Origin: a virus
Virus record (IMG/VR): IMGVR_UViG_3300029181_000008
Span: 1-41,672 of that record
DNA: 41,672 nucleotides
Strand: one strand, 5' to 3'
Positions 100 to 33,617 of this stretch are shown here, in pieces (position 1 is the stretch's first letter; each line of letters begins with the position of its first letter). The position numbers and the translations under genes are program-made. The notes below the pieces were generated by a model. The model was not told the origin of the DNA and did no database searches. It saw only the letters and a program-made list of their open reading frames with translations.

Positions 100-134
100 T
101 CCATGACTTAGAACAGGAGGAAAAAGAGGAATGA
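1..134 (+). CDS. 3' part of the junction-spanning BhlA/UviB-like holin-family membrane protein (5' part at 41441..41672)
   Basis: Joining 41441..41672 to 100..134 gives an 88-aa ORF (MALLETLIPACISAGVTLLVCLINN...HDLEQEEKEE) with an N-terminal TM helix plus coiled coil. Its stop overlaps the next start (ATGA at 131-134). Confidence 0.7.
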   Translation, partial: RVDKHNSVIERTYELEKNMAVVMEKIGVANHRIHDLEQEEKEE

Positions 135-319
135 AGAAGTGGTTAAAAACCGTAGGTATCAGATGCGTTAAGACTATGGCGCAGGCAGCAATTGGAGTCA
201 TTGGCTCCTCTGCCATGCTTGCCGAGGTAGACTGGAAGGTGTGCCTATCAACCGTTGTGTTAGCAGGTATCACTTGCATCTTGATGAACGTAAGCCAGAT
301 CAAGGAAACGGAGGTATGA
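131..319 (+). CDS. Holin (small two-TM protein)
   Basis: 62 aa with two hydrophobic segments (AQAAIGVIGSSAML, LSTVVLAGITCILM). It sits immediately upstream of the endolysin. Confidence 0.75.
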   Translation: MKKWLKTVGIRCVKTMAQAAIGVIGSSAMLAEVDWKVCLSTVVLAGITCILMNVSQIKETEV

Positions 320-533: not shown

Positions 534-1514
534 ATGGTAAGAATCGGGTCTGCGAGAATTGACGAGAGTGGAAAATTGAAGGGCGGACAGCCTGGCGACC
601 AGACAGGGCAGGAAGTGGCGATTGAGCCATGGTATCTGCACGATAAGGGGTGGATAGTCATCCGTGCCAAAGATGCAGCAGTGCGTGAGCGTATCGCACA
701 GTGCATGGAAGCAGCGTGCGCAAATAATAATGTTGGCTATGATCAGTCTACGTCTTGGGATTTGTACGATAAGGCTAAGCAGTACGGATGGGATTGCAGC
801 AAGGTTAACACCCCAGTGGAGACAGACTGTAGCAGCCTTGTACGTGTATGTGTAGCTTTTGCTATTGGCAAGGATGTGCCGTGGTTTTCAACAGCTAATC
901 AGGTGCTTGTACTTGATGCAACAAAGCTTTTTGATGTTATTACAGATACAAGTGTTACCAATCATGATACCGCCCTTAAACGTGGGGATATTCTCTGCAC
1001 ACGCACACAGGGGCACACCGTGGTAGTCCTTGATAACGGATCGGCAGTAAGCGGCAGCACCTCAAAGCCATTAGAGGGCAATACAAGCTTCTGCGGCAAG
1101 GGTATCGGAACAGCAGTTGCAAAGACTGCAATGCATATTAGAGACGGAGCAAAAGGCTCTGCAAACTCTCTTGCTATCATCCAAAAGGGAACGGCAGTAG
1201 AAGTACTTGAAGTAACCGCTGATTTTTGGTACAAAATCGTGTGGCCAGGTGCATCATGTGGCTACGCATATACTAAGGGCGGTGAAGTGTACTACGATTA
1301 CACAGCCATTAAGTCTACAGCTATCAACGTGGGCGATACGGTATACTTTTTTGGTGGAGCGCAGTATATCTCCGCATGGGCTACAACACCAGTAGCAGCA
1401 AAAGCAGGACACGCAAAAGTTACGCAGCTTTGCGCAACTGGCAAGCATAACTATCATATTGTAGGCGATGGTGTCTACGGTTGGGTAGATGGAAACACGC
1501 TGAAAAAGGAGTAA
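534..1514 (+). CDS. Endolysin: N-terminal papain-fold (NlpC/P60- or CHAP-like) cysteine peptidase plus C-terminal SH3b-like wall-binding repeats
   Basis: Has a candidate catalytic Cys (ETDCSSLV) and His (QGHTVVVLD). The C-terminal half contains SH3b-like segments (AMHIRDGAKGS...WYKIVWPG and GDTVYFFGG...VYGWVDGNTL). It lies next to the holin. Confidence 0.8.
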   Translation: MVRIGSARIDESGKLKGGQPGDQTGQEVAIEPWYLHDKGWIVIRAKDAAVRERIAQCMEAACANNNVGYDQSTSWDLYDKAKQYGWDCSKVNTPVETDCSSLVRVCVAFAIGKDVPWFSTANQVLVLDATKLFDVITDTSVTNHDTALKRGDILCTRTQGHTVVVLDNGSAVSGSTSKPLEGNTSFCGKGIGTAVAKTAMHIRDGAKGSANSLAIIQKGTAVEVLEVTADFWYKIVWPGASCGYAYTKGGEVYYDYTAIKSTAINVGDTVYFFGGAQYISAWATTPVAAKAGHAKVTQLCATGKHNYHIVGDGVYGWVDGNTLKKE

Positions 1515-1662: not shown

Positions 1663-1920
1663 ATGGATAGAGGGCTTGTTAAGGTATTTTGGGGATGCGG
1701 TGACAATGGTATAATCGAGTATGCCCTGATGAGGGCGCGACTGAATCGGAAGGAGAAAGAGGCAGTAACTTATCTTCTGGATGAGTGTATGTCTCAAGAG
1801 GAAGCAGCGGAAAAGATGTGCGTAAGTACGCGAAGATTTCAAGAGTACTGGTACGCGGCATCTGACAAGCTGCTGTCTCTTCCGTGGCTTGCGGCTTATG
1901 CGGAAGAACTGAAAAAATAG
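1663..1920 (+). CDS. Small sigma-70-region-4/LuxR-like HTH regulator
   Basis: Internal ATG of ORF 1588..1920. The segment LNRKEKEAVTYLLDECMSQEEAAEKMCVSTRRFQEYW has a region-4-like HTH pattern. Confidence 0.6.
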   Translation: MDRGLVKVFWGCGDNGIIEYALMRARLNRKEKEAVTYLLDECMSQEEAAEKMCVSTRRFQEYWYAASDKLLSLPWLAAYAEELKK

Positions 1921-1980: not shown

Positions 1981-2013
1981 AGAAGGGCAGAAAAGAAAAT
2001 GGAGGGACACACA

Positions 2014-2583
2014 ATGAGAAAATCTTTGTACGCATTAACCATGGCACTTGCGCTTGCAGTATCTACAGCCCCAGTAATGGCAGAAGAAACAAGCACAGAA
2101 GAAGGAGCTGAGATTGCAGCAGACGAGAACACAGTAGAGGGTATCGAAGCAATGATTCAGCAACTTGAAAAGCAGATTGCGGAATTGAAGCAGAAGTTAA
2201 AAGAGCTTCGAGGAGAGGATGCAATTCAGGAGGGAGATATCGTATATCAGGACGATATGGTAATCATTACCTACAATGGCATATCTGATGAGTATGGACG
2301 ATATGATATCATGCTTACTGCCGAGAATTTGACTGATAAAAAAATTCGTGTGCAGACATCTGATACATCAATCAATGGCTACATGACATACCAAATGTTT
2401 TCTGTTGGCTTAGAAGCCAATAAAAAATCGAAGGGAACGCTTACTATTGATGACAGTGTAGAGGTTGAAAATATCGAAGATTTGCAGAATGTAGAGACAA
2501 AAATTCAAGTATTGGATGATACTACATATGAAGAGCTTCTTCTTACTGACCCAATTACTATCAATTTCAACATTGAAAAATAA
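2014..2583 (+). CDS. Secreted protein (signal peptide, coiled coil, beta-rich domain); moron
   Basis: GGAGGG RBS lies 6 nt before ATG 2014. MRKSLYALTMALALAVSTAPVMA-EE is a signal-peptidase-I type leader with no lipobox Cys. Confidence 0.75.
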   Translation: MRKSLYALTMALALAVSTAPVMAEETSTEEGAEIAADENTVEGIEAMIQQLEKQIAELKQKLKELRGEDAIQEGDIVYQDDMVIITYNGISDEYGRYDIMLTAENLTDKKIRVQTSDTSINGYMTYQMFSVGLEANKKSKGTLTIDDSVEVENIEDLQNVETKIQVLDDTTYEELLLTDPITINFNIEK

Positions 2584-2651: not shown

Positions 2652-2680
2652 TGTCTTTTCTCCCCTGCATGTGTGATAAT
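2652..2680 (+). promoter_or_regulatory. Possible promoter of the cargo operon (weak -35, extended -10)
   Basis: TGTCTT, 17 nt, then TGtGATAAT (2672-2680). The leader to RBS GGAGGG (2689-2694) would be very short. Confidence 0.3.
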
Positions 2681-2702
2681 ACAGCCATGGAGGGAAGAAC
2701 GC

Positions 2703-3086
2703 ATGTATAAAAGATATAATCCAAACCCAGTTGCAGCAAGAGTAGGAGATTGCACCGTCAGGGCATTATGCAAGGCTCTTGATCAGGACTGGGACAAGAC
2801 CTACTTACAACTTTGCGTGCAGGGCTTGCTGATGGCTGATATGCCGTCTGCAAATGCAGTGTGGGGCGCATACCTGCATGACGAAGGTTTTAGGCGAGGT
2901 ATAGTCTCTGAGGCTTGCCCTATCTGCTATAACGTTGCATCATTTGCGGCAGAACATCCACAAGGGGTGTATGTATTGGCACTGGGAAGCCATGTTGTAA
3001 CTGTGGTTGATGGTGATTATTATGATACATGGGACTCAGGGCAGGAAATCCCCCTCTACTTTTGGGAAAGGAGTGATGAGAAGTGA
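2703..3086 (+). CDS. Small Cys-His-Asp enzyme (papain/transglutaminase-like fold predicted); first gene of the cargo operon
   Basis: Internal ATG with a GGAGGG RBS. Ordered motifs are GDCTVRA (Cys), GSHVVTV (His) and YYDTWDSG (Asp). Confidence 0.65.
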   Translation: MYKRYNPNPVAARVGDCTVRALCKALDQDWDKTYLQLCVQGLLMADMPSANAVWGAYLHDEGFRRGIVSEACPICYNVASFAAEHPQGVYVLALGSHVVTVVDGDYYDTWDSGQEIPLYFWERSDEK

Positions 3087-3568
3087 GTTACCCCTACTAT
3101 GGCTATCAAAATTTTGGGCAACCGTATAGCCCACCCGTGCCAGATCAGCTAGCACAGATGAGAATGCAGCAGAGTCCACAAATGCAGGGCTATCAGAATT
3201 TTGGGCAACAGCAGCCTCAGCCCTCTGCGGACGACCGTATTTGGGTTCAAGGGCAGAATGCAGCAGAAGCCTATCTTGTAGCTGCTAATGGATTTGTGAG
3301 ACTGTGGGATAGTAGCCGACAAGTTTTCTACGAGAAACGAGCTGACAGCTCTGGACGACCTTACATGGAAACGTATGAGTATCAGCGCAAGGGTGCGGAA
3401 TCGCCCAACGTAGGCACGGAGACGCAGAAGCAAGCTGTTGACTACTCAAAAGAGATAAGCGGCTTAAAGCAGCGTTTAGCGGCTCTGGAAGCACACTTTA
3501 AGAACGGAGGTAGTGTAGATGCAATTTCAAAATCCAATGCAGATGATACAGCAATTCCAACAGTTTAA
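3083..3568 (+). CDS. Gln/Pro-rich N-terminus plus small beta domain protein
   Basis: GTG start overlaps the upstream stop (GTGA). GYQNFGQ is duplicated in a Q-rich first ~50 aa, followed by IWVQGQNAAEAYLVAANGFVRLWD. Confidence 0.65.
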   Translation: MSYPYYGYQNFGQPYSPPVPDQLAQMRMQQSPQMQGYQNFGQQQPQPSADDRIWVQGQNAAEAYLVAANGFVRLWDSSRQVFYEKRADSSGRPYMETYEYQRKGAESPNVGTETQKQAVDYSKEISGLKQRLAALEAHFKNGGSVDAISKSNADDTAIPTV

Positions 3569-3704
3569 AAAAGCATTTACTGGTGATCCCAAAGCAGAGG
3601 TTCAGAAGCTTCTTACCTCTGGGAAAATCAATCAGCAACAGCTCAATCAGTTGCAAGCAATGGCGCAACAGTTTCAAGGGTTGTTAAATAGCAATGGTAA
3701 GTAA
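3519..3704 (+). CDS. Small Gln-rich helical protein
   Basis: GGAGG RBS lies 7 nt before the ATG. 61 aa with QQFQQF, QQQLNQLQAMAQQFQ. Overlaps the previous gene by 50 nt out of frame. Confidence 0.6.
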   Translation: MQFQNPMQMIQQFQQFKKAFTGDPKAEVQKLLTSGKINQQQLNQLQAMAQQFQGLLNSNGK

Positions 3705-3757
3705 ATCACGCAAAATGCGTTGATTATACAAAAAAAACTCAGAAAGGAGAAAAATTT

Positions 3758-4612
3758 ATGAGTTTAACAAGTGAAAGTATGACTCCTGCCGATATCGCAG
3801 CCGTAACAGGTAATAACGGTAACGGAATGTGGGGTGATGGTGGTGCATGGTGGATCATCATTCTTTTCCTCTTCGTGTTCTGCGGTTGGGGAAACGGTAA
3901 CGGATGGGGAAACAACGGAGGTGCAGGCGCGGCTGATAACTACGTTTTAGCAAGCGATTTTGCAACCTTACAGCGACAGATCGACAGCTCTACAGCGTCA
4001 TTAGAGCGCAAATCCGATGCGATCAACAGTGGACTCTGTGATGGCTTTTACGCGATGAATACCACCGCTTTAAACGGCTTCTCAGGTGTCAACCAGAATC
4101 TTAGTAACGGCTTTGCACAGGCTGAATTGTCTCGTGCTAACGGACAGATGGGCTTAATGCAGCAGATGAACGCTAACAACATCACGGCTATGCAGAATGC
4201 CAACGCTTTGCAGTCTCAGCTTGCACAGTGCTGCTGCGATAACCGAGAGGCTATCTCTGGTGTGAACTACAACATGGCGATGAATACCAATGCCTTGCAG
4301 CACAGTGTAGAATCTGGATTCTGCCAGACGAACTACAACAACGCTTCCAATACGCGCGATATCATCGACAACCAGAACAGCAACGCAAGAGCGATCCTTG
4401 ATGCACTGAATGCACAGCAGATTGCGGCAAAAGATGCGAAGATTGCCGAGCAGAATCAGCAGATTTTTGGCTTGCAGCTTGCAGCATCTCAGCAGGCACA
4501 GAACAATTACTTAGTTCAGACACTTAAACCTGCACCAGTTCCGAGCTTTCCTGCTGGACAGCTCTACGGCTACATGGGTGGCTGCTGCAATCCGTGCAAT
4601 AGCTGTTCCTGA
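3758..4612 (+). CDS. Membrane-anchored Asn/Gln-rich, Cys-cluster protein
   Basis: AGGAG RBS. One TM helix (GAWWIIILFLFVFCGW) is flanked by a GNGNGWGNNGG tract. Has internal CCC (QCCCDN) and a C-terminal GGCCNPCNSCS. Confidence 0.7.
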   Translation: MSLTSESMTPADIAAVTGNNGNGMWGDGGAWWIIILFLFVFCGWGNGNGWGNNGGAGAADNYVLASDFATLQRQIDSSTASLERKSDAINSGLCDGFYAMNTTALNGFSGVNQNLSNGFAQAELSRANGQMGLMQQMNANNITAMQNANALQSQLAQCCCDNREAISGVNYNMAMNTNALQHSVESGFCQTNYNNASNTRDIIDNQNSNARAILDALNAQQIAAKDAKIAEQNQQIFGLQLAASQQAQNNYLVQTLKPAPVPSFPAGQLYGYMGGCCNPCNSCS

Positions 4613-4627
4613 TAGGGGGTGGCGAGT

Positions 4628-5038
4628 ATGGCAGAATATACGTTAACCACACCTACAGCCGTCCCTCTGGGCGGTGCAGTGCCATATACCAACACAATTA
4701 TCAAGGGTTGCTGTAACATCAAGCATAGAGCAGGTTCAGGGCAGGTGACTGTCAAGGGCGGCACTTGCTGCAACCCTGCAAAGTACCTCGTGTACTTTCA
4801 CGCCAACGTAACAGGAGTTGCAGGAGCAATTCAGCTTGCGCTGTTTTTGGATGGCGAGAGGCTTCCAGAAACCTTGATGGCTGTTGTTCCTGCCGCTGCG
4901 ACTGACGTTTGGTCAGTGAGTGCAGAAACTGAATTTTGCGTGGACTGCTGCTGTGGCACAGTCTCAGCAAGAGTAGTAGAGGGTGCAACGGTTACAGTTA
5001 ATACAGCGGAAATAATCGTGAAAAAGGAGGTGGCATAA
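4628..5038 (+). CDS. Cys-cluster beta-sandwich protein, BclA-C-terminal/C1q-like pattern
   Basis: ATG 4628 lies 8 nt after AGGGGG (the ORF track starts at GTG 4619). Pattern is KYLVYFHANVTG...IQLALFLDGERL with CC, CC and CCC clusters. Confidence 0.6.
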   Translation: MAEYTLTTPTAVPLGGAVPYTNTIIKGCCNIKHRAGSGQVTVKGGTCCNPAKYLVYFHANVTGVAGAIQLALFLDGERLPETLMAVVPAAATDVWSVSAETEFCVDCCCGTVSARVVEGATVTVNTAEIIVKKEVA

Positions 5039-5433
5039 TGGGAACAATGGAAGATTTAAAACGCATGATTTGCACAGAACTTGAAGAAATCGCCAAAAAG
5101 GGTGAAATGTCCGCAGGCGATCTTGATACAGTATACAAGCTCATCGTATCGAAGGAAAAGCTTCTGCGCATTGACGAGCTTGAAGAAAAGCTTGGCTATA
5201 GCGAAGACGGCAGAAAATGGAGATACAGCAGAGACGGAGAGCCAGATGGCGGCAGCAGCTATGGACGGCATTATGTGAGGGCACACTACAGCAGAGACGG
5301 TAGAGGACGCTACAGCATGGATGAGGGACGCACGATGCTTGCAGATCAGATCAGAGATATGATTGATAACAGTGATCTGAGCCAGAACCAGAAAGGCGCA
5401 CTCAGAAAGGCAATGGAAGCTTTGCAGGAGTGA
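5038..5433 (+). CDS. Helical protein with a central Arg/Gly/Tyr-rich YSRDG-repeat segment
   Basis: AAGGAGG RBS. Start overlaps the upstream stop (TAATG). Contains RYSRDG...HYSRDGRGRYSMDEG. Confidence 0.65.
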   Translation: MGTMEDLKRMICTELEEIAKKGEMSAGDLDTVYKLIVSKEKLLRIDELEEKLGYSEDGRKWRYSRDGEPDGGSSYGRHYVRAHYSRDGRGRYSMDEGRTMLADQIRDMIDNSDLSQNQKGALRKAMEALQE

Positions 5434-5454
5434 TGATGGAAAGGGGGTAGAGCG

Positions 5455-5778
5455 ATGCTTGATATGGACGAGATAAAAAGTGAGATTGCACGGCTTGAAA
5501 ATGGAAATATCACCTTTTCAACTGTGGAAAAGCTTGCTATGCTCTACATAGTGCAAGAGCGCAACTCCCCTATACCAGAACCAGAGCCAGTTGAGATACA
5601 GCAAATGCCAAAGTATGCGTATGCAGCCGCACCAACTGCCCCTAAATCTGATTTTTTAGAGGCGGTTGGAAAAGTACCGATAGAAAAAGCCTTAGATGTA
5701 CTGGATGAGCATATGGAAGCAATAAAGCTGCTATATCCTAAGGAGTACAAGGCTGTGATAAACAAAATATTGGCATAA
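5455..5778 (+). CDS. Hypothetical protein, last gene of the cargo operon
   Basis: AAGGGGG RBS. 107 aa with a Pro/Glu linker (PIPEPEPVEIQQ). Confidence 0.6.
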   Translation: MLDMDEIKSEIARLENGNITFSTVEKLAMLYIVQERNSPIPEPEPVEIQQMPKYAYAAAPTAPKSDFLEAVGKVPIEKALDVLDEHMEAIKLLYPKEYKAVINKILA

Positions 5779-5783
5779 AAAAG

Positions 5784-5811
5784 AAGAGGGTAGCAGTTGT
5801 GCTTCCCTCTT
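5784..5811. terminator. Bidirectional terminator between the convergent cargo operon and the minus-strand cassette
   Basis: Stem aagagggtagc/gcttccctctt (one mismatch). An A-run lies upstream, giving a U-run on the minus-strand RNA, and the + side is T-rich. Confidence 0.65.
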
Positions 5812-5830
5812 TCGACTTTTAAAATCTTAC

Positions 5831-6016
5831 CTACAATTCAACAACAATATTGGCTGAATCTTGAATCACTGCACGCTCCAATAGTGCAGCCACATAATCT
5901 GGACAACTGCGCTTGCCCTGCTCCCATGATTGCAAGGTGCGTGGTGGGATTCCATACCTTTTGCAAAATTCTTGCTGTGTGTCTCCTAACATCGCTCGCA
6001 TTTCTCGAATTTCCAT
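5831..6016 (-). CDS. XRE-family HTH protein (antitoxin-like short form)
   Basis: MEIREMRAMLGDTQQEFCKRYGIPPRTLQSWEQGKR is a classic HTH_XRE pattern. The start abuts the upstream stop. Confidence 0.8.
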   Translation of the reverse strand: MEIREMRAMLGDTQQEFCKRYGIPPRTLQSWEQGKRSCPDYVAALLERAVIQDSANIVVEL

Positions 6017-6775
6017 TTACTTTTTATCCTGCCTTTCCTTAATATCCTTTGCTTTGTATTCTGATACAATTTCTTTGATTTTCAATTCCCAACCTTGATT
6101 TTCTTCCAAAAACTTTCCGAAAATTGCATCTTCGGCAGCTTTTCTTGCAGCCTTAGCGTTTTCAATATCTTTGTAAGCTCCAAGGGAGTATTGCTTGCCC
6201 TTAAAAGTAATGTATGCACGATAGCCACCGTGTCTCCCATAAGATACACCATTGATACCAGTTGTAGAGTTAGACCAAATCTTGCCTTCTTGAACTGATT
6301 TCGCAGCTGCAAGAGAAGAACCAGAAACCAAGAACTCTTTTCGCATGTCTTGCAAGAAGTTAGCGTTTTTCTTGTGGCATGAAGAACACTGTTTCATCTT
6401 CGGCAAGTTAGTTAGATATGCTTCTGTTTCTTGCCCACAAACGGGGCAGATTGCTTTACACATATATACCTTGTAGCCATTCATTTCTCGTTGCCATACA
6501 TCTAGCACTTTAAAACCATTTATTGTGCTGCCAATCTTGCTTTTTGCTTTCTTAGCAGAGTTCTCAGATGTTTTCTTTGCAGCCTTCTTGGCTGATTCCT
6601 CTTTGAATAGGCAACCGCAAGATAATGTGAGTCCTCTGGTTAAATTCCACTTGTACACATCTTTAACAGTTCCACATGCGCATTTGCAAGTGTAGTAGTT
6701 GGGTTTGGAAGAAGGGGCTATTACTTCCCAACTTCCAAATCTATCACCTGCTTGAAGATTATGCTTACTGCTCAT
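6017..6775 (-). CDS. DNA-binding protein with two Cys4 zinc-ribbon modules and a C-terminal AP2 domain
   Basis: Two CxC...CGC / CxxC...CxxC repeats are followed by GINGVSYGRHGGYRAYITFKGKQYSLGAYKDIENAKAARKAAE (AP2/ERF-like). Confidence 0.75.
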   Translation of the reverse strand: MSSKHNLQAGDRFGSWEVIAPSSKPNYYTCKCACGTVKDVYKWNLTRGLTLSCGCLFKEESAKKAAKKTSENSAKKAKSKIGSTINGFKVLDVWQREMNGYKVYMCKAICPVCGQETEAYLTNLPKMKQCSSCHKKNANFLQDMRKEFLVSGSSLAAAKSVQEGKIWSNSTTGINGVSYGRHGGYRAYITFKGKQYSLGAYKDIENAKAARKAAEDAIFGKFLEENQGWELKIKEIVSEYKAKDIKERQDKK

Positions 6776-6905
6776 AAGCCTTTAGCTCCTCACAGATTTC
6801 CTCAGCCTCCTCCTCAGTAAGTTCATACTCAGTCATAAGCTCTTCCTTGTCAGTGCTTCTCCAACCACCATCAAATAAAGCTGCTGCATCATACTGATTG
6901 TTCAT
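6765..6905 (-). CDS. Small acidic protein
   Basis: 46-aa ORF MNNQYDAAALFDGGWRSTDKEELMTEYELTEEEAEEICEELKAYEQ, below the track cutoff. Overlaps the downstream start by 11 nt. Confidence 0.5.
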   Translation of the reverse strand: MNNQYDAAALFDGGWRSTDKEELMTEYELTEEEAEEICEELKAYEQ

Positions 6906-7128
6906 TGTCTCGTTTCTCATTTCCTTTTACCTTAACCACTCTTTGTGGTTTCCTTTCTTTGTTATGTCTATATAATATCATACAATGTATGACTTGTATA
7001 GCGATAAATATATCATGTATTGTGTGATATATTGATATTATTTAATATTTTATTGCTATTATGTTACCATGACATCTGACAAGGTGACATAATAGCAAAA
7101 AGTAAGTACAAAAAAATTGCACAAAAAT
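6906..7128. other. AT-rich non-coding region downstream of the integrase; probable attP location
   Basis: 223 nt with no plausible ORF, containing several dyad symmetries and lying immediately 3' of the serine integrase gene. Confidence 0.45.
7053..7098. repeat. 46-bp imperfect inverted repeat (attP core candidate or integrase terminator)
   Basis: ttgctattatgttacc (7053-7068) pairs with ggtgacataatagcaa (7083-7098): 15 of 16 complementary, 14-nt spacer. Confidence 0.5.
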
Positions 7129-8463
7129 TTAAACAAAGTACACCTTGTCGACTGAGTGACGCTTGATCTCGATTCTCCTCACAACTCTGTGCCAGAAATC
7201 TCGCTTTCCCTGCCTTGATAGCTGCTCGTAAATTTCCTTCCAGTTATCTGGCATCTGGCTGACTGGTAGCGCAGGTGCTGCCAAACTCTCAAGCTCCGCA
7301 AGCTGTGCTTTCAGCTCTTTTGTCTTTTCAAGATACTCAGCACGGCTCATATCACCATCAAGGTATATATCTTTCAGCCGTTCCAATCTCCCCTTGATCT
7401 TCTCAATTTTTCCCTCGGTGCTTTTTGCTTTCGCTGCAAGCTTCTGAACGCTTGCGTTATAATCTACAATCAATTCTTCCAGATGATCTATCATGTAGCT
7501 TTCCAAATTGTGTTCCATGATGAATGCAGCGTTTTTGCATTCTCCTCTCCGCACGGTTCTCATACGGCATTGATAGTATAGCTTTTCCTTTGGTTTGCCG
7601 TAGCTTGTATAGCAAGTGCACTTTGATCCCATCCTTGCACCACAGCTAGCGCAGAAGATTAACCCTGTAAAAATATATACTCTGTCTGCTTTTGGCTGTC
7701 TGGGATAATGCTGCCTTGCTTGCTGTATAAGCTCATGTTGTGCAGGTGTGATATATCCTGGCACTGATACACCATAGTAAGTGCCGTAGTACGGCTCTTT
7801 ATCAAGCAAAAAATGAGCGGTTTTCCGAGACATTTTCAAGCCCTTTTCGGCAGCTGCATCCATGGCTTGCACTGGGCTGTATGTGTTAAGATAGGTATCA
7901 AAAAAAGCTTGCATAGCTTCTTTTGTCTGAGGATCGAAGTCAATCGTAGATGCTGATGTGCGGATATATCCGAGTGGCATCTTACCTACTATGATATATC
8001 CCTGCGATTTGCGATACTCGTTAACCGCTCTGATACGCTCTGAGGTGCGGTCTGACTCAGCTTGGGCGATACTCAACATAATGTTGACTTTAAACACACC
8101 TGCGGACGTTTCCGTCTCGTAGTCCTCCCAGATAGCTCTCCATGGTACTTTTGCGGCATCAAGCTGACTCTGTACCTCATAGTAGTCCGCAACGGAGCGA
8201 AACCATCTATCGAGCTTTGTAAAAAGGATGATATCAATTTTGTGATCTTTGCAATCCTGTATAAGTTGTAGCAGCGCAGGACGTGCTTTGTACTTCTTTC
8301 TCGCACTAATGCCTGCATCGTTGTAGATGCCTGCGACTTCCAGACCGTTCTCGCGGCAGTACTTTTGCAGCGCATCAATCTGGCTATCTACTGATAAGCC
8401 GTGATCTCTTTGTTCTGCGGTTGATACGCGGACATATATAGCCGCCCTTTTCTTTCCTTCCAT
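7129..8463 (-). CDS. int: Large serine recombinase (phage integrase)
   Basis: N-terminal resolvase motif AAIYVRVSTAEQ, recombinase domain, Cys-rich zinc-ribbon segment (CASCGARMG...YYQC) and C-terminal coiled coil. 444 aa. Confidence 0.95.
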   Translation of the reverse strand: MEGKKRAAIYVRVSTAEQRDHGLSVDSQIDALQKYCRENGLEVAGIYNDAGISARKKYKARPALLQLIQDCKDHKIDIILFTKLDRWFRSVADYYEVQSQLDAAKVPWRAIWEDYETETSAGVFKVNIMLSIAQAESDRTSERIRAVNEYRKSQGYIIVGKMPLGYIRTSASTIDFDPQTKEAMQAFFDTYLNTYSPVQAMDAAAEKGLKMSRKTAHFLLDKEPYYGTYYGVSVPGYITPAQHELIQQARQHYPRQPKADRVYIFTGLIFCASCGARMGSKCTCYTSYGKPKEKLYYQCRMRTVRRGECKNAAFIMEHNLESYMIDHLEELIVDYNASVQKLAAKAKSTEGKIEKIKGRLERLKDIYLDGDMSRAEYLEKTKELKAQLAELESLAAPALPVSQMPDNWKEIYEQLSRQGKRDFWHRVVRRIEIKRHSVDKVYFV

Positions 8464-8728: not shown

Positions 8729-8804
8729 AAAGATAACCGATATGCTACAAACGCAAAGCGAAGATGTGTTGCTGTTGATCTACGAAATCTTGCTTAAGAT
8801 GTAG
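8709..8804 (+). CDS. Small helical peptide, paralog 2 (31 aa)
   Basis: AAAGGAG RBS. MKKMLIKKITDMLQTQSEDVLLLIYEILLKM, similar to paralog 1. Its 3' end overlaps the convergent repressor gene's 3' end by 11 nt. Confidence 0.5.
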   Translation: MKKMLIKKITDMLQTQSEDVLLLIYEILLKM

Positions 8805-9183
8805 CGTGTTTGAGTGCTTTGAGGTTGCCCAGTATGTCCCCGAAGATTTCTGCTTGATCTTCCGAGAGCTGCAAAACATACTGTACAGCCTCAATTGCAA
8901 CTTGATAGCGGCTTGATGTAGGATCAAGTTGCCTCAGTTGGCTTGCGATGTTGGAGATTTCCGCGCATGATGCAGCCTGCATTTCGCCTTTTCCAGTCCG
9001 CAACCACTCCTCTCTAATGCTGAATCTCTCGCAGATCAGCGTGATACTCTGCGTGCTTGGCTTGCTTTTTCCACTGCACATGTTAGATACTGCTGACTCC
9101 GAAATTTGCAAAGTTCGTGCCAGTCCTGCCTGTTTCATTCCCTTCATCTTCAATATCTGTAAAATTCTATCGCCGATTTCCAT
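8794..9183 (-). CDS. XRE-family repressor-like protein 1
   Basis: MEIGDRILQILKMKGMKQAGLARTLQISESAVSNMCSGKSKPS is an HTH_XRE pattern. Paralogous to 9562..9957 (shared REEWLRTGKGEM / NEAWLRTGEGEM). Confidence 0.85.
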   Translation of the reverse strand: MEIGDRILQILKMKGMKQAGLARTLQISESAVSNMCSGKSKPSTQSITLICERFSIREEWLRTGKGEMQAASCAEISNIASQLRQLDPTSSRYQVAIEAVQYVLQLSEDQAEIFGDILGNLKALKHATS

Positions 9184-10105: not shown

Positions 10106-11824
10106 ATGGCAATCGCAAATTACAAGAGCTTTATTACAAGATTAGGAAAAATGATCTGCAAGAACTTCACAGATAGTGAGTTCGTCAAAACAGAATTTGA
10201 TGATGAATTTAATTCTAACACAGCTTATTTTACTATCAACGGATATTCTGCATGGGCATGTATCTATGATGATGATGATGTCATTACCGTATATGTTGCT
10301 GGCACACACACAGTCGAAATCAAAATTGACGGTACGCAGAAAGATGCTATGGCAACAGCCGTTCGTAGAATCGAAAGCCTATTAGATGAAGCAGAAATTA
10401 AAAAAGCAGAGATAGATAAAAAGGCTGAGGAAGAAGTGAATGCAGATAAGCAGGACAAGCAGGAAGCAGCAGAGAAGGAAACAGCAAAGCAGTACTTTGT
10501 AGTAAATTACGAGAAAGACGGTATTTTTCATGCAAACATTGCAAGCGCAGAAAAGAAGTCTGACGTAGAAGCGAAGTATAGCGAATATGATGCATTTGCC
10601 GTAGTCGAAGCAAACGATTATATAGTGAAAGAAGCAAAGATTAAGCACATGCCGATTATCGAGGTTGAGCCAGTAAAGCAGGAAGGAAGAAATAAAATGG
10701 AAAGTGTTAAACCATTGTCCATAAAAGTAGAGAGAGCAATCAGCAAGATGGCATTAGGTGATTGCACATTAACAGGAGTAACAGAGTTAAGTGATTATTG
10801 CCATGATATCTATGTAACTATTGAAACTGGCAAAGACAGGTATGAACTCAAAGTTATTCTCAAGCGCAATATTGATGGAGTTACAACCATTGCTATTGTT
10901 GAGGATGGAGCCGATGAAGCAACACATGTTTTTACAGATAAGGGTTGCAAGAGCCTTGATGCTATCGCTTACCACACGAAGATGCTTGTTGACGGAATGT
11001 ATGCACAGAGAATGTTCGATATGTCATGTGAGATAACCGACCCAGAGTATTTTGAAGAACATAAGAATGATGTAGAGGAAGAGGAGCAAGTTGAAGAAAA
11101 GGAGCAGGAAATTATCGTAGAAGAGGAAGACGAGAACGAAGTTATGTTAAATGTTATTAGATTTCATCTTGAAAGCAGTATGAAGAGATGGTACGAGGAT
11201 GTAGAACTTTACTACGGTATCAGCGGAAGATTCCTTGATTGCAAGGCTGAGGGTGACAACCTCTTGATTTTCTATGAAGAGAAAGGAAAGAAGTACATTA
11301 CCAGAATCTGTTCCTACAAGGACTATACACCAGAACAGATTTACAACATCTGGATGGAAGCTGACGGATGTGAAATGAGATCGGAAGAGATCGAGAGATT
11401 TTTTCCGCAGGAAGTAGAAGAGCCGCAACCGACACCAGAGGAAGCCGACAGAGAAGTAACGTATATCGACTTCAAGCCAGAGCAGGACTACAGCGAAGAA
11501 GAACAGAAAGAGATTGCTGAGACGGTTACAGGTGTAGGGCTTGAGCTACTTGAAAAGGAGCTTACAGAGCTTGAGAAGTTGGAAGAGGAAAGCGACAAAG
11601 CGGATGACGCATGGGACAAAGATCCATTGAACGCAGAGCTTGAAGTGGCAAGTAGTAAGGCATACGAGAAAGAGTGGAAAAAGTACATGGACTCAGCCAA
11701 AACGCTTGCAAGGCTTATCAACATGGACACGAAAACAGCAAAACAGATGTTGCAGAGAGGTAGCAAGAACCGTGAGAAGGTATGGAACTACTTGAAGCGC
11801 ATGAAAGTGTATGAAAACAAATAA
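10106..11824 (+). CDS. Large, highly acidic early protein of unknown function
   Basis: 572 aa and the first gene after the early promoter. Long Glu/Asp tracts (EEEEQVEEKEQEIIVEEEDENE; EEPQPTPEEADRE). Confidence 0.8.
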   Translation: MAIANYKSFITRLGKMICKNFTDSEFVKTEFDDEFNSNTAYFTINGYSAWACIYDDDDVITVYVAGTHTVEIKIDGTQKDAMATAVRRIESLLDEAEIKKAEIDKKAEEEVNADKQDKQEAAEKETAKQYFVVNYEKDGIFHANIASAEKKSDVEAKYSEYDAFAVVEANDYIVKEAKIKHMPIIEVEPVKQEGRNKMESVKPLSIKVERAISKMALGDCTLTGVTELSDYCHDIYVTIETGKDRYELKVILKRNIDGVTTIAIVEDGADEATHVFTDKGCKSLDAIAYHTKMLVDGMYAQRMFDMSCEITDPEYFEEHKNDVEEEEQVEEKEQEIIVEEEDENEVMLNVIRFHLESSMKRWYEDVELYYGISGRFLDCKAEGDNLLIFYEEKGKKYITRICSYKDYTPEQIYNIWMEADGCEMRSEEIERFFPQEVEEPQPTPEEADREVTYIDFKPEQDYSEEEQKEIAETVTGVGLELLEKELTELEKLEEESDKADDAWDKDPLNAELEVASSKAYEKEWKKYMDSAKTLARLINMDTKTAKQMLQRGSKNREKVWNYLKRMKVYENK

Positions 11825-11864
11825 TCAGTGCTGCGCTAACGGCAAGACGGGCAGAGGGGGCAAT

Positions 11865-12041
11865 ATGGTTGTAGTTAACGGACATGAAGCAGAACACCTC
11901 AGAGAATTACCGCAAGCAGATCAGGACAGCATAGCGCATAACGTGCTGAGTGAGCTGTATAGAATCTGGTTGAGAGAGCATGGAATGCACCTTGAGAGTA
12001 TTGAGGTGAGCAGAAAGAAGAAGGAGGATGTGGGTGCATAA
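11865..12041 (+). CDS. Hypothetical small protein
   Basis: Internal ATG of ORF 11811..12041, preceded by a GAGGGGG RBS. Confidence 0.55.
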   Translation: MVVVNGHEAEHLRELPQADQDSIAHNVLSELYRIWLREHGMHLESIEVSRKKKEDVGA

Positions 12042-12243
12042 GTACGAGGTATGTTTTTATATAGATTGGCAATTGGTAGCAGGCTGCATCATTGAAACCT
12101 ATGACAAGGATAGTGCAGAAAAACTAGCAACTGCCAAATTGCAAGACGAAATCAAAGAAATAGAAAATGCACTGAATGCAAAGGTTAACCGAACTTTTGT
12201 ATCACAGTTGCCAGATAATCAACACAGAAAGGAAAGACAATGA
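12028..12243 (+). CDS. Hypothetical small protein
   Basis: 71-aa ORF with GGAGGA immediately before the ATG. Overlaps both neighbours. Confidence 0.55.
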   Translation: MWVHKYEVCFYIDWQLVAGCIIETYDKDSAEKLATAKLQDEIKEIENALNAKVNRTFVSQLPDNQHRKERQ

Positions 12244-12662
12244 CAGACAAAGAGTTAAGATCAAAATTCGAGTGGATAATCAGAAACGAAGTATATCCAA
12301 ACAGCGAGGATATGCAAGATTATGTTATTCGCCAAAATGAATGCCTTATTGAGCTTTCAGGCGAGAGAATTACAAGTATCAAAAAGCCTGAGAGCCTTGG
12401 CGATATATATTGCTTCGAGGAACGCGTAGGAATGCTGAGAAAGTGTCTCAAGGGGACTCACAAGTGTAGAGCGATTAGTTTGTTGAACGGATGCAAACTT
12501 GTACATACAGTTTGCTACAAGGCAGAAGATGAGCCTGATTGGATATCTGAGAATCCACAAAAGGTATCTAAGCTCTGGAAGAGAGACATAAAACGTATCA
12601 TCGCAGGATATCAGGCAATGATCAAGCAGTATAAGAGAGCTTTAGGAGGGGCAGAGGAATGA
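12240..12662 (+). CDS. Hypothetical protein, tandem paralog A
   Basis: MTDKELRSKFEWIIRNEVYPNSEDMQDY... resembles the next gene. ATGA overlaps at both ends. Confidence 0.7.
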   Translation: MTDKELRSKFEWIIRNEVYPNSEDMQDYVIRQNECLIELSGERITSIKKPESLGDIYCFEERVGMLRKCLKGTHKCRAISLLNGCKLVHTVCYKAEDEPDWISENPQKVSKLWKRDIKRIIAGYQAMIKQYKRALGGAEE

Positions 12663-13087
12663 CGCAGAAGGAGCTGAGAAAGAAGTACATGCAGATCATC
12701 AAGACCGAGGCATATCCTCACGATGCAAAAATGCAGAAGTATTGCAAAGAAAGATGTGGCTACATTGTAGAGCTTACAGACGGTAAGTTTATCAGACTGT
12801 ATAATCCAAGAAAGCATGTTCCGTATGATTTCGCTGAGATCATTGACAAAATTACCAGATTAACGTTGTGCCTTGAAGGTTTCTTCGGGTGCAAGACATT
12901 TGTGCAGTATTCCGCATCATCAGACGATTGCGATCTGGTGCAAGAAGTTACATATTCTGGTGTAGAGTCAAAGTGGATGAAAGAAGAGGCGGCTAGAGGG
13001 CAGGACAGAAATAGCGAAGATATCCAAAGAATGATTGATGGCTATAAGTATCTGCTGATGAAATACAAGGTTGGAGGTAAGAAATGA
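12659..13087 (+). CDS. Hypothetical protein, tandem paralog B
   Basis: MTQKELRKKYMQIIKTEAYPHDAKMQKY..., with a C-terminal IQRMIDGYKYLLMKYK matching IKRIIAGYQAMIKQYK in paralog A. Confidence 0.7.
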   Translation: MTQKELRKKYMQIIKTEAYPHDAKMQKYCKERCGYIVELTDGKFIRLYNPRKHVPYDFAEIIDKITRLTLCLEGFFGCKTFVQYSASSDDCDLVQEVTYSGVESKWMKEEAARGQDRNSEDIQRMIDGYKYLLMKYKVGGKK

Positions 13088-24547: not shown

Positions 24548-25477
24548 TTGGCAAGAGCACCAGATGCAAGGATTGATCAGGCGAAGAAATTGTATTTGCA
24601 GGGTAAGAAATTAACCGAGATTGCAAGTCAGTTGGGCTTGCCAGAAGGAACGGTTAGACGATGGAAAAGCACTTACAAGTGGGATAAGGGAGGCACCGAG
24701 CGTTCGGAAAAGAAAAGCGAACGTTCGCTAAAAAATAACGAGCGTTCGGATAAAAAGAAAACCCTAAAGGAAAGAACTGTAAATGCTGATGTTGAGTCTG
24801 TGAACAAAAATGCAGAATTGACAGAGAAACAGCGGCTTTTCTGCATGTTTTACGTCCGCTGTTTTAATGCAACAAAAGCCTATCAGAAAGCCTATGAATG
24901 CAGTTATGAATCAGCTAACGTAGAAGGTTATAAGACCCTAGTAAAACCTAGTATCCAAAACGAGATTCAACGATTGAAGCAGTCCCGATTGAATCGGGAG
25001 CTTTTAGATGAATCCGACATCTTTCAGAAATATATGGATATTGCATTTTCTGATATCACCGATTATCTAACCTTTGGAACGGAGGAAGTTCCAGTAATAG
25101 GGGCATCTGGACTGGTAGAAGTAAAAGACCCCGACACAGGAGAGAAAAAACCACTTACCAAGATTGTTAATGTCGTTCGTTTTAAGCCCTCTGCCGAGAT
25201 AGACGGAACTATTCTTGCAGAAGTTAAGCAGGGAAAAGATGGGGCAAGTATCAAGCTAGCTGACCGTATGAAAGCACTTGATTGGCTAGCAGCGCATATG
25301 GACTTAGCTACAGCCGAGCAAAAGGCAAAGATAGCACAGATCAACGCACAAACCGAGCGGCTAAAGCAGGATAACGAGCAGGAGGGGCTTGCTGATGACG
25401 GATTCCTGCAAGCACTTGAAGGTAATGCCGCTGCGGATTGGGAGGGCTGGACAGATGAGCCTAGTGAAGAAAGTTAA
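24548..25477 (+). CDS. terS: Terminase small subunit
   Basis: TTG start after an AGGTGA RBS gives (M)ARAPDARIDQAKKLYLQGKKLTEIASQLGLPEGTVRRWKS (N-terminal HTH), then LTEKQRLFCMFYV...NATKAY (Terminase_2-like). Confidence 0.85.
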   Translation: MARAPDARIDQAKKLYLQGKKLTEIASQLGLPEGTVRRWKSTYKWDKGGTERSEKKSERSLKNNERSDKKKTLKERTVNADVESVNKNAELTEKQRLFCMFYVRCFNATKAYQKAYECSYESANVEGYKTLVKPSIQNEIQRLKQSRLNRELLDESDIFQKYMDIAFSDITDYLTFGTEEVPVIGASGLVEVKDPDTGEKKPLTKIVNVVRFKPSAEIDGTILAEVKQGKDGASIKLADRMKALDWLAAHMDLATAEQKAKIAQINAQTERLKQDNEQEGLADDGFLQALEGNAAADWEGWTDEPSEES

Positions 25478-26765
25478 ACAGTTTTTTCATTTTAAACCAT
25501 TCTCTCCAAAGCAACGTAAGGTGCTTAATTGGTGGTGCGATACATCACCAGTAAAAGATATGGAGGGCATCATTGCAGATGGTGCTATTCGATCAGGCAA
25601 AACACTGAGTATGTCACTAGCCTTTGTATTTTGGGCTATGACTACCTTCGAAAATCAGAATTTTGCAATGTGTGGTAAAACCATTGGATCATTTCGCCGC
25701 AACGTTCTTTTTTGGCTAAAGCTGATGCTAAGAGCCAGAGGCTATAAAGTAGAAGATCATCGAGCTGACAATCTGATTGTTATATCGAGAGGAGAAACGG
25801 AGAACTATTTTTATGTCTTTGGCGGCAAGGATGAGCGATCACAAGATTTGATACAGGGTATCACGCTTGCAGGTGTATTTTTTGATGAAGTGGCTCTTAT
25901 GCCTGAGAGCTTCGTTAACCAAGCGACAGGACGATGCTCAGTAAACGGCTCAAAATTCTGGTTTAACTGCAATCCTGATTCACCTTCGCACTGGTTCAAG
26001 GTAAATTGGATAGACAAGCGCAAGGAAAAGAAACTGATTTACCTGCACTTCACCATGGACGACAACCTTTCACTCTCGGAAGAGATCAAAGAACGATATC
26101 GCAGCATGTACGTGGGAGTGTTCTATAAGCGTTATATTCTCGGACTCTGGTGCATAGCTGAGGGACTTGTATATGATATGTTTTCGAAAGAAGAGAACGT
26201 GTTGAAAGAAGAACCTGACACAATCGGAGATTATTACGTTTCTTCTGACTTTGGTATTCAAAACGCAACGACTTTTCTGCTCTGGCGCAGAATTGCAGGG
26301 ACAGACGATTGGCTATGCCTGAAAGAATACTACTACAGTGGGCGAGAGAAGAGTCAACAAAAGACAGTGGGACAGCTTGTAGACGGACTTGCGGAAATGC
26401 TAAATGGAATCAAGCCAAAGCAGGTAATCATTGACCCCTCTGCTGCTGCGCTGAAAGTAGAGGTAAGAAACCGAGGGCTGCATGTAAAGGATGCGGATAA
26501 CGATGTAACGAATGGAATTTCAGACGTTTCAACCATGCTGCAAACTAGGCGATTAAAGTTTATGGCTTGCTGCAAATACACCATAAAAGAGTTTGGGGCT
26601 TACGTGTGGGATCAGAAAGCCCTAGACCGAGGAGAGGAGAAAGTGGACAAGGAAAGCGATCATTGCATGGATGCAGTACGATATTTTGTAAGAACCAAGA
26701 GATTGATAAAAAAGACAAGAGCCGCACTTGATGCAGCAGTAGCAAGCGGCAATTACATGCTGTAA
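25455..26765 (+). CDS. terL: Terminase large subunit (PBSX/Terminase_3-like)
   Basis: Walker A-like DGAIRSGKTLS, Walker B-like VFFDEV, and a nuclease region with a C-terminal DHCMDAVRY. GGAGGG RBS before ATG 25455. Confidence 0.92.
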   Translation: MSLVKKVKQFFHFKPFSPKQRKVLNWWCDTSPVKDMEGIIADGAIRSGKTLSMSLAFVFWAMTTFENQNFAMCGKTIGSFRRNVLFWLKLMLRARGYKVEDHRADNLIVISRGETENYFYVFGGKDERSQDLIQGITLAGVFFDEVALMPESFVNQATGRCSVNGSKFWFNCNPDSPSHWFKVNWIDKRKEKKLIYLHFTMDDNLSLSEEIKERYRSMYVGVFYKRYILGLWCIAEGLVYDMFSKEENVLKEEPDTIGDYYVSSDFGIQNATTFLLWRRIAGTDDWLCLKEYYYSGREKSQQKTVGQLVDGLAEMLNGIKPKQVIIDPSAAALKVEVRNRGLHVKDADNDVTNGISDVSTMLQTRRLKFMACCKYTIKEFGAYVWDQKALDRGEEKVDKESDHCMDAVRYFVRTKRLIKKTRAALDAAVASGNYML

Positions 26766-33312: not shown

Positions 33313-33617
33313 GCGCAGACGAGGAGACGCGGAGAGTGCTTTACCTCTGCATAGGAGATTACAGAGGTAGAACACTAGCAGGTTTTTTCGCGTATGTGCA
33401 AGGCAGACATGCACAGTACGTAGAAAACCTGCTTTATCGCGTTTATTTGACGGATGCGCTGCAAAAAATCTGCGAAAACACTGCTAACTTTGCAGGCGGG
33501 CACATCATGAAGCAGCGATATTATGATGTGGCATATGGAAAGCCTAAAAAGGAAGAAGATGCAGAAGAGATCATAACAAAAATTATTAAAGCGGCAGGAC
33601 TGGAGGTGAGGCTGTGA
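33303..33617 (+). CDS. T-like extension of the tail assembly chaperone, reached by a -1 frameshift (fusion 32974..33617)
   Basis: The -1 frame is open from 33273. A T5 run (33302-33306) sits two codons before the G stop. There is no RBS or ATG for independent initiation (the track start is GTG 33336). Confidence 0.55.
   Translation, partial: FYLSADEETRRVLYLCIGDYRGRTLAGFFAYVQGRHAQYVENLLYRVYLTDALQKICENTANFAGGHIMKQRYYDVAYGKPKKEEDAEEIITKIIKAAGLEVRL

Follow-up and report, generated by a model that had tools for sequence, protein, structure and literature searches.

What does a tailed phage need a set of seven small genes for, none of which resembles a familiar phage protein? This question is raised by a 41,672-nt viral DNA (IMG/VR record IMGVR_UViG_3300029181_000008, positions 1 to 41,672; the whole of this stretch is referred to as the window), which carries seven co-directional genes at 2703-5778, here called g1 to g7. 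The original prediction, made from the letters of the window alone, had taken this cassette for a spore-layer or surface assembly system brought in by a prophage. Our analysis points elsewhere. Judged by its predicted signals, the cassette is an independently transcribed phage accessory unit made of two halves, g1-g2-g3 and g4-g5-g6-(g7); its gene order was shown to be conserved across tailed phages of great diversity that infect anaerobes of the gut and rumen; and it probably does not serve spore-layer assembly. The reading that we tentatively favour, at less than even confidence, is that this phage-restricted module builds a membrane-anchored complex of g4, g5 and g6 that would act for the phage itself at the membrane.

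All seven open reading frames (ORFs) were verified on the plus strand, and the close coupling of the genes, with a GTGA junction, a 50-nt overlap of g2 and g3 (3519-3568) and a TAATG junction, was read directly in the sequence. Both hairpins that flank the cassette fold far better than shuffled sequence. The upstream hairpin reached -20.8 kcal/mol (z = -4.9), with none of 200 shuffles as stable, and the downstream hairpin -17.5 kcal/mol on the plus strand (z = -4.4) and -15.8 kcal/mol on the minus strand (z = -3.9); a simple consensus terminator scan had picked up neither of them. The upstream element is predicted to end the transcript of the lysis region and to form the upstream boundary of the cassette. 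The downstream element is read as bidirectional because its energies are strong on both strands and because an A run precedes and a T run follows it, and it is common to the cassette and a convergent helix-turn-helix (HTH) gene.

The products are as extreme in composition as had been claimed. Gln and Asn together make up 16.8% of g2, 34.4% of g3 and 22.2% of g4, compared with 8.4 ± 2.0% (maximum 13.0%) in the 30 other proteins of the window, and Cys accounts for 5.9% of g5 compared with 1.6 ± 1.1% in the other window proteins. The described motifs are present as well, namely GNGNGWGNNGG, CCC and a C-terminal CCNPCNSCS in g4, the CC/CC/CCC clusters in g5 and two YSRDG repeats in g6, and g7 contains a PIPEPEPVE motif. 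No N-terminal hydrophobic export signal was seen in the sequences of g1, g2, g3, g5, g6 and g7, all of which have polar starts. Scans of the seven proteins against Pfam, NCBIfam and PADLOC gave no usable match (in PADLOC none below E 0.02 for any of them), and six of the seven products match PHROGs, all of unknown function, g7 being the one without a match. Correspondingly, a resemblance to virion, replication or lysis proteins, which the original prediction had denied, was found neither by Pfam nor by NCBIfam or PHROGs, nor was there a defence match in PADLOC. The families are thus already catalogued as anonymous PHROGs, and the genes themselves are not new; in the literature we found no description of them, either as a conserved cassette or by fold.

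Loci were gathered from IMG/VR via g5, from GTDB genomes via g4, from contigs encoding g4 relatives and from GenBank phages, and were searched with iterated profiles of the seven families. This yielded 144 g4 loci, 109 of them with enough flanking sequence. More than 100 loci of diverse phages show the order g1-g2-g3/g4-g5-g6-(g7), and the commonest arrangements among the 144 are the complete set (41) and g1 to g6 (32). In the 109 loci, g4 was accompanied by g5 in 91%, g6 in 83%, g2 in 75%, g1 in 72%, g3 in 62% and g7 in 36% (counts: g5 adjoining g4, 99; g6, 90; g7, 39). Fusions of the Rosetta-stone type between any two of the seven families were not found. The original prediction had named a lack of co-occurrence outside this genome as a result that would speak against it; on this point it held up, as the seven families recur in conserved order across phages.

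Most junctions are tight, and the g2/g3 overlap is kept across loci (median -8 nt), whereas the g3-g4 gap has a median of 65 nt. It harbours homing endonucleases in a close relative of the window (L217) and in Dulem virus 33, and in rumen phages large fibre-like proteins or secreted GDSL, metallophosphoesterase and leucine-rich repeat (LRR) proteins. Because this gap is an insertion-tolerant seam, we read the cassette as two halves. The endonuclease genes are of the HNH/NUMOD4 type and lie on the opposite strand, exactly in the gap (L217 8465-9016 (-); Dulem virus 33, L002, 6163-6714 (-)). The rumen inserts are found in the seam or just 5' of g4 (L025 2739-4979, L035 3229-4863, L079 5322-6887, L048 3297-5087, L026 1102-4053); some combine a signal peptide with a GDSL-lipase or metallophosphoesterase, others have tail-fibre-like N-termini or BspA-type LRR together with DUF6273.

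The carriers differ widely in lifestyle. Two isolates, Butyrivibrio sp. INlla21 and Vescimonas fastidiosa MM35, carry the full module in prophages. It is also complete in phage Ceridwen of Butyrivibrio fibrisolvens, which was seen to grow only lytically and is regarded as virulent by its authors (PMC7372960). Further carriers are contigs of about 140 kb, and g4 alone was found in a phage of Bacteroides uniformis that had been isolated from a plaque (E 1.7e-41), amid recombination genes. In Bacteroides phage C3_41T2LP (L144, 4722-6789) the g4 homologue is followed by proteins of 180 and 177 aa that match neither the g5 nor the g6 profile; the 180-aa protein is beta-rich with a CC pair and is perhaps a partner that is highly divergent or not homologous at all. 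All contexts that were examined are phages or prophages, and the plasmid collection yielded a single match, which is a prophage carried by an 861-kb replicon. A defence island or plasmid cargo was rejected on this ground and on the missing PADLOC match. Host names of metagenome bins (Alloprevotella, Methanobrevibacter) were not used as evidence, as phage-sized contigs are easily mis-binned.

The position of the module within the genomes is just as variable. It follows the holin and endolysin genes in the window, in L058 and in the Vescimonas prophage, lies between the tail genes and the endolysin in L055 and between fibre-type genes in L061, and directly precedes the replication genes in L057. 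The nearest large upstream gene, determined in 78 loci, most commonly encodes endolysin-type Pfam domains (PG_binding_1 12, GH25 6, Amidase_2 5, NlpC/P60 5, ELLD 3), while several others are fibre-type; downstream, 93 loci comprise 15 with a tyrosine integrase and two with a serine recombinase, and further ones have helicases, glycosyltransferases or an endolysin. The proposed lysogenic-conversion position applies to the window, where the cassette lies between lysis genes and integrase, and does not extend to the many phages without an adjoining integrase. An obligate coupling to the ELLD endolysin was rejected, since, of the 68 loci that encode a related endolysin (identity 64-68%; mostly phage contigs some 50-90 kb long), 50 show no module at a distance of up to 9 kb. 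Within the lineage of the window, the module does not vary among the near relatives examined, and the variable genes are the reverse-strand set between g7 and the integrase.

Predicted terminators were shown usually to bracket the cassette wherever it is placed. As a first detector proved too permissive (46% of random windows), a stricter one was used. For 39 of 71 loci it reported a hairpin with T-run in the 300 nt upstream of the module, and for 53 of 84 one in the 150 nt downstream. The same detector scored 53/492 (11%) upstream-type and 16/492 (3%) downstream-type random windows, 2/108 windows inside g4 and 1/68 after g3. The loci are mutually related, so that Fisher P-values overstate their independence, but the contrast is still large. 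The Ceridwen record likewise annotates terminators on both sides of the cassette. Together with the hairpins of the window, this enriched bracketing bears out the earlier claim of an autonomous unit.

These features invite a comparison with morons and conversion cassettes such as lambda bor/lom, HK97 gp15 and the streptococcal toxin/paratox region between lysin and attR. Like them, the cassette has its own terminator and is isolated from the upstream operon, lies in the window between lysis genes and attachment site, includes a membrane protein and has a G+C content slightly higher than its surroundings. Unlike morons, it comprises six to seven genes in fixed order, is constant within lineages and occurs in apparently virulent phages; instead of being patchy among close relatives, it is carried by all relatives of 40-44 kb. 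In short, it appears to be moron-like in its transcriptional anatomy but to behave as part of a lineage core.

The most widespread component of the cassette is g4 (284 aa, phrog_16490), a single-pass, Cys-rich, Gln/Asn-rich and helical membrane protein. A profile search returned at least 7,997 clusters (90% identity), nearly all of them 257-286 aa long, and the family has neither a Pfam entry nor a name. Its members share an acidic N-tail that contains MPVAP and a hydrophobic run of the WWIIILL type (median 15 aa) with Gly, Asn and Trp on its flanks. Also conserved are a Gln/Asn-rich helical region with an invariant CCC(E/D)NR and two further cysteines, an LCQDK motif, a Pro-rich YLAPxPRPAY stretch and a terminal NPNCC..GCGC; about ten cysteines are conserved, the median being 10.5 Cys per protein. 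The hydrophobic segment measures 13-21 aa (Kyte-Doolittle about 2.3). Its N-flank contains 0.3 Lys or Arg per 30 aa and has a net charge of -2.3, compared with -1.0 for the C-flank, and is the more negative of the two in 79% of 132 sequences. Since the N-flank is nearly free of Lys and Arg and the N-tail is short, the positive-inside and charge-difference rules predict an N-out/C-in topology, from which we infer that the short acidic N-tail is outside and the large Cys-rich helical domain in the cytoplasm. Sequence and profile searches of the Protein Data Bank (PDB) with g1, g2, g4, g5 and g6 gave chance-level matches only, and a match of the influenza HEF2 fusion-peptide end to the Gly-rich hydrophobic start of g4 (E 0.5) was not significant. 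In its layout of a single N-terminal hydrophobic anchor and a long helical region, g4 is like the i-spanin Rz, phi29 p16.7 and PBSX XhlA, and Rz also has conserved cysteines, which it uses for covalent multimerisation. It differs from these proteins in having no sequence or profile similarity to them, no outer-membrane lipoprotein partner and no detectable DNA-binding domain, and the hosts are mostly monoderm.

Directly beside g4 lies g5 (136 aa, phrog_20016), which is a jelly-roll over its whole length. The family alignment places its start at ATG 4628 (MAEY...) and not at GTG 4619. An AlphaFold2 (AF2) model built with 30 homologues is all-beta, with a mean predicted local distance difference test (pLDDT) score of 93.8 and a predicted template modelling (pTM) score of 0.87, and has the ten strands of the TNF/C1q jelly-roll. 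Foldseek placed the C-terminal domain (CTD) of F-BclA first among PDB entries (9h38, E 3.6e-10, template modelling (TM) score 0.78), followed by ExsFA (7r5i), BxpB (8d02) and BclA (1wck); EDA-A1, C1q and TNF proteins are further neighbours, and the top matches have probability 1.00, TM 0.75-0.80 and E 1e-8 to 4e-10. Like ExsFA/BxpB, g5 is a single domain of about 140 aa without signal peptide, and many single-domain phage proteins of 130-150 aa in the viral BFVD library match the same fold. From the exosporium proteins it differs in being phage-encoded, in its low identity to them (12-15%) and in its eight cysteines, which all lie within three inter-strand loops and form clusters not present in those proteins. 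It has no Pfam BclA_C or C1q match at E <= 1, no PDB match by phmmer and no collagen-like GXY stalk, and an exosporium leader was not detected by NCBIfam in any of the seven proteins. The BclA/C1q likeness originally suggested therefore stands for the fold and falls for membership of the BclA family. A match of g5 to CFA/I fimbriae (E 2.8e-4) was discarded, as a triplicated chain had inflated it and the fold search spoke against it. The g5 family numbers 959 representatives at 50% identity, and the best 150 of these are all 81-196 aa long, none of them fused to a shaft. It is presumed that g5 forms trimers.

The first gene, g1 (127 aa, phrog_3754), had been described as an enzyme with ordered Cys, His and Asp motifs. 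Its invariant residues are N6, N8, D16, C17, R20, H97, D108 and W110, C72-x-x-C75 is conserved, and C17, H97 and D108 are invariant in alignments of 24 and of 41 sequences. In the AF2 model (pLDDT 93.1), C17 opens helix 17-26, H97 precedes strand 98-102 and D108 ends strand 105-108, so that the Cys lies at a helix N-terminus and the His and Asp on adjacent beta-strands, as in papain-like enzymes. The best structural match in the PDB, Josephin-2 (6pgv), is not significant (E 0.067, probability 0.75, TM 0.46), the other papain-like neighbours, which include ataxin-3, M48 USP and PaTox, have E > 1, and the family has no Pfam or PDB profile match. Thus the triad and its papain-like arrangement in the model agree with the enzyme assignment, while a significant structural match does not accompany them. 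A minimal papain-like Cys-His-Asp thiol hydrolase is plausible. Compared with papain-like (clan CA-type) cysteine hydrolases, of which Josephin is nearest, g1 shares the Cys at a helix start, the His at a strand start, the Asp on the next strand and conserved preceding Asn residues, but has only 127 aa and no Pfam family. Protease, isopeptidase, transglutaminase and acyltransferase chemistry are indistinguishable at the level of its sequence. The family comprises more than 1,311 clusters, g1 stands alone in Bacillus Tsamsa/Kirov-like phages and in Geobacillus phage GBK2, and among near-identical phages it has an allele pattern of its own; for the latter two reasons we consider g1 only loosely linked to the cassette. 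The solo homologues (Bacillus phage Kirov, L143, 4983-5381; GBK2, L142, 4986-5375; E 1e-44 to 1e-47 against the family profile) sit amid small early-type genes, and some are annotated 'putative peptidase'.

The remaining products are low-complexity or helical proteins. The Gln/Tyr/Pro-rich low-complexity N-terminus of g2 (161 aa, phrog_21718) is combined with a coiled-coil tail and a conserved domain of ~50 aa (WVxGE...DS...YxKS.D..G.P), and g2 occurs as two alleles (63% and 98% identity) among otherwise near-identical phages. Its overlapping neighbour g3 (61 aa, phrog_22984) is helical and Gln-rich (26% Gln). In g6 (131 aa, phrog_28802), an N-terminal helical domain (LCxELEE...KG.LS) and a C-terminal helix are joined by an Arg/Tyr/Ser/Gly-rich linker, which consists of the YSRDG repeats. 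Scans of family members gave no Pfam or PDB relative for g2 or g6. The least conserved member of the cassette is g7 (107 aa), a helical protein with a Pro/Glu linker and without PHROG or Pfam match, which was detected in Ceridwen and the Vescimonas prophage by iterated profile.

How might these proteins work together? The mechanism we propose, with low confidence, starts from g4, which would be inserted N-out/C-in, with its Cys-rich domain exposed to the cytoplasm alongside g1, g2, g3, g5, g6 and g7. Trimers of g5 might then dock on a Pro-rich peptide of g4, by analogy with ExsF, whose trimers bind the Pro-rich leader peptide of F-Anchor or BclA in their inter-protomer clefts (PMC12357932). 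A complex of g4 and g5 is the simplest reading because of the strict adjacency of the two genes, the ExsF-like fold of g5 and the two conserved Pro-rich peptides of g4. The Gln-rich g2 and g3 as well as g6 and g7 could be adaptors or scaffolds, and g1 might process or cross-link a component or work independently. The complex would act in infected or lysogenic cells, either by excluding or competing with other phages or by controlling a membrane-linked step, and would build no spore or cell-surface layer for the host. That it acts for the phage at the membrane is suggested by its own transcription unit, its restriction to phages, its place at the late/lysogeny junction and its presence in temperate and virulent-type phages alike.

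Several points weigh against this membrane-complex reading. We found no experiment, profile or publication that links any of these families to a function, and both the topology of g4 and its contact with g5 are ones that we infer. The pairwise identities of g5 covary less with those of the g4 tail (Spearman rho 0.19) than with those of the N-terminal 60 residues of g4 (0.43), and thus do not single out the tail. Known exclusion proteins are single small proteins and not cassettes of six or seven genes. They usually differ from one related phage to the next, but the module stays the same throughout a lineage. Its frequent placement beside or between tail-fibre genes fits a virion role equally well, and the apparently virulent carriers imply that expression from a prophage cannot be its sole mode of action. 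Finally, a sigma-70-type promoter 5' of g1 is a weak candidate; the extended -10 element there was not listed by a consensus promoter scan because it has no good -35.

Those fibre-gene neighbourhoods make a virion role the serious rival, although we consider it unlikely. According to it, g4 trimers form a helical shaft and g5 a separate TNF-like knob, as in BclA, PRD1 P5 or the Sf6 needle knob, and coupled to the shaft by the Cys clusters; g1, g2, g3, g6 and g7 would help in assembly or processing, and the complex would decorate tail or head for adsorption or particle stability. TNF/C1q knobs are common at the tips of phage and giant-virus fibres, an export signal only in g4 is what is expected of parts assembled in the cytoplasm, and the module occurs in temperate and apparently virulent phages alike. 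Its neighbours include tail-fibre-type proteins (for example Laminin_G_3, LRR_5 and Mtd_N in L061) and large tail proteins (L055, L057), the g3-g4 inserts can be fibre-like, and depositors annotated the g4 homologue of the Bacteroides phage as 'outer capsid protein/viral fiber'. Nevertheless, the strongly hydrophobic 13-21-aa segment of g4 is atypical for fibres, in most loci the module is cut off from the structural operon by terminators, and in the window and many relatives it lies 3' of the lysis genes. Moreover, g4 of the Bacteroides phage lies amid recombination genes, no product matches a structurally annotated PHROG, and the g5 relatives inspected include no shaft fusion.

Another possibility, which we regard as unlikely, is an undescribed phage machine in which g4 captures the stand-alone g5 trimer together with the Gln-, Tyr- and Arg-rich partners, and a papain-like cross-linker turns them into a covalently stabilised assembly, with the chemistry of spore coat and exosporium put to use for the phage itself. 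If true, this could mean, for example, an oxidation-hardened shell or tether for the progeny of strict anaerobes, or a lattice beneath the membrane to block incoming genomes.

Quite improbable, in our view, is an accessory role in lysis or egress. Here g4 would be a membrane-anchored coiled coil with intermolecular Cys, formally like the i-spanin Rz or PBSX XhlA/XepA, which with its partners disrupts or remodels the envelope after endolysin action or sets the timing of lysis. The N-terminal anchor, long helical region, conserved Cys and Pro-rich segment of g4 would suit it, as would the endolysin-type domains that are commonest in the upstream gene among 78 loci, the place of the module just before the lysin in L055 and the secreted GDSL esterases and phosphoesterases inserted in it in rumen phages. 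But the mostly monoderm Clostridia hosts need no spanin, a lipoprotein partner is missing (a signal peptide or lipobox is absent from both g5 and g6), and the window already has an r1t-type holin. The module is also a separate transcription unit, does not lie beside lysis genes in L057 and the Bacteroides phage, and is absent near most related endolysins.

We attach the same low probability to an early function in host take-over or anti-defence, in which g1 would be a Josephin-like isopeptidase or protease acting on a host modification or factor, and the g4 complex would tether a phage process to the membrane, as phi29 p16.7 anchors replication. The only structural neighbours of g1 are papain-like deubiquitinases and toxin proteases, g1 lies among small early-type genes in GBK2 and Kirov, and a role of g1 against host ubiquitin-like (Ubl-type) defences is conceivable. 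Replication or recombination genes adjoin the module and share its direction in L057, Ceridwen and the Bacteroides phage. On the other hand, the structural matches of g1 are not significant (E at least 0.067), nothing connects g4 to g6 with DNA or any defence pathway, the module lies at the late genome end in most loci, and in temperate members the lysogeny module separates it from the early genes.

The spore-layer proposal fares worst. Spore coat and exosporium chemistry is exemplified by GerQ/Tgl, ExsY/CotY, CdeC and YabG, and Butyrivibrio, Vescimonas and Bacteroides do not sporulate. That the cassette is a prophage-borne coat- or exosporium-like set (a Cys-protease or transglutaminase, Gln-rich and Cys-rich proteins and a BclA/ExsF-like trimer) which adds to or remodels the spore or surface layer of the lysogen is very unlikely: the exosporium matches of g5, a Gln-rich, Cys-clustered, Arg/Ser/Tyr-rich and Cys-His-Asp repertoire that mirrors that chemistry, the lack of export signals outside g4 as in layers assembled by the mother cell, and the place at the attR end of the prophage speak for it, but virulent-type carriers (Ceridwen) and carriers of non-sporulating hosts (INlla21, MM35, and for g4 the Bacteroides phage), the shifting positions, often with no integrase nearby (L055, L057, L061), the missing exosporium leader, collagen repeat and BclA_C signature, and a module never found outside phage contexts argue against it. 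Judged by the features tested, the cassette matches neither spanins and holins nor known defence systems or exosporium proteins.

The window itself is a complete, circularly permuted siphovirus genome, in which portal, major head protein, Dit, one tail protein and one tail fibre genes accompany the features listed in Table 1. Rfam and tRNA scans of the window found no RNA elements. Integrated copies have a few small reverse-strand genes after g7, and next to these come host genes, which are of Firmicutes type (glycogen-synthase-type glycosyltransferase, NFACT, YicC, RemA and guanylate kinase).

Table 1 Coordinates of the cassette and of other features of the window
Feature	Position	Strand	Remarks
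r1t-type holin	131-319		upstream of cassette
ELLD endolysin	534-1514		upstream of cassette
secreted 194-aa protein	1999-2583	+	between endolysin and cassette
predicted upstream intrinsic terminator	hairpin 2590-2621 and T-run, element to 2628	+	13-bp stem, 6-nt loop, T7
candidate extended -10 element	2672-2680	+	TGtGATAAT; 22 nt 5' of g1 start codon; read from sequence
g1	2703-3086	+	
g2	3083-3568	+	
g3	3519-3704	+	
g3-g4 intergenic gap	3705-3757		
g4	3758-4612	+	
g5	4628-5038	+	start ATG 4628, not GTG 4619
g6	5038-5433	+	
g7	5455-5778	+	
predicted downstream bidirectional terminator	5783-5812	both	
small HTH_3 gene	5831-6016	-	convergent with cassette; in cargo hot spot
HNH/AP2-like 252-aa gene	6017-6775	-	in cargo hot spot
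serine integrase	7129-8463	-	downstream of cassette
CI-like repressor	8794-9183	-	
large terminase	25389-26765		
tape measure	33614-36625		

Some of the neighbouring genes deserve mention. An 85-aa ORF 3' of the endolysin (1663-1920 (+)) is conserved, and relatives have an additional 46-aa ORF there; its C-terminal half resembles an HTH or sigma region 4, with no Pfam match at E <= 0.01. The secreted 194-aa protein has a signal peptide with an AxA-type site and a coiled coil, occurs as two alleles among relatives (about 69% and 98% identity) and weakly matches T4 Spackle (Pfam E 0.11; phrog_1586 E 0.032); conceivably its gene is a separate one of exclusion type. Between it and g1, some close relatives have an extra 173-aa zinc-ribbon protein (L214 7436-7957, with equivalents in L215, L216 and L218), which is not present in the window. 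On the other side, the stretch from g7 to the serine integrase is a hot spot for cargo (window 5831-7000, minus strand; compare L214-L219 at about 11200-12800). In the window it holds the small HTH gene and the HNH/AP2-like gene, which lie between cassette and integrase on the reverse strand, and a third gene of 51 aa, and the sets of otherwise near-identical relatives differ (312+137 aa, 154+194+97 aa, 190+79+78 aa and others).

Taken together, the TNF/C1q 'exosporium' fold is used by phages as a free-standing module, within a cassette that is found in a large share of the tailed Clostridia phages from human gut and rumen and whose g4 family, despite its size, has yet to receive a Pfam family or a name. 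Such conservation of a unit of six to seven genes implies that it fulfils an important task for these phages. Culturable test systems exist in Ceridwen and in the prophages of Vescimonas fastidiosa MM35 and Butyrivibrio sp. INlla21, and once its role is known, thousands of 'hypothetical' genes of the gut virome would gain an annotation.

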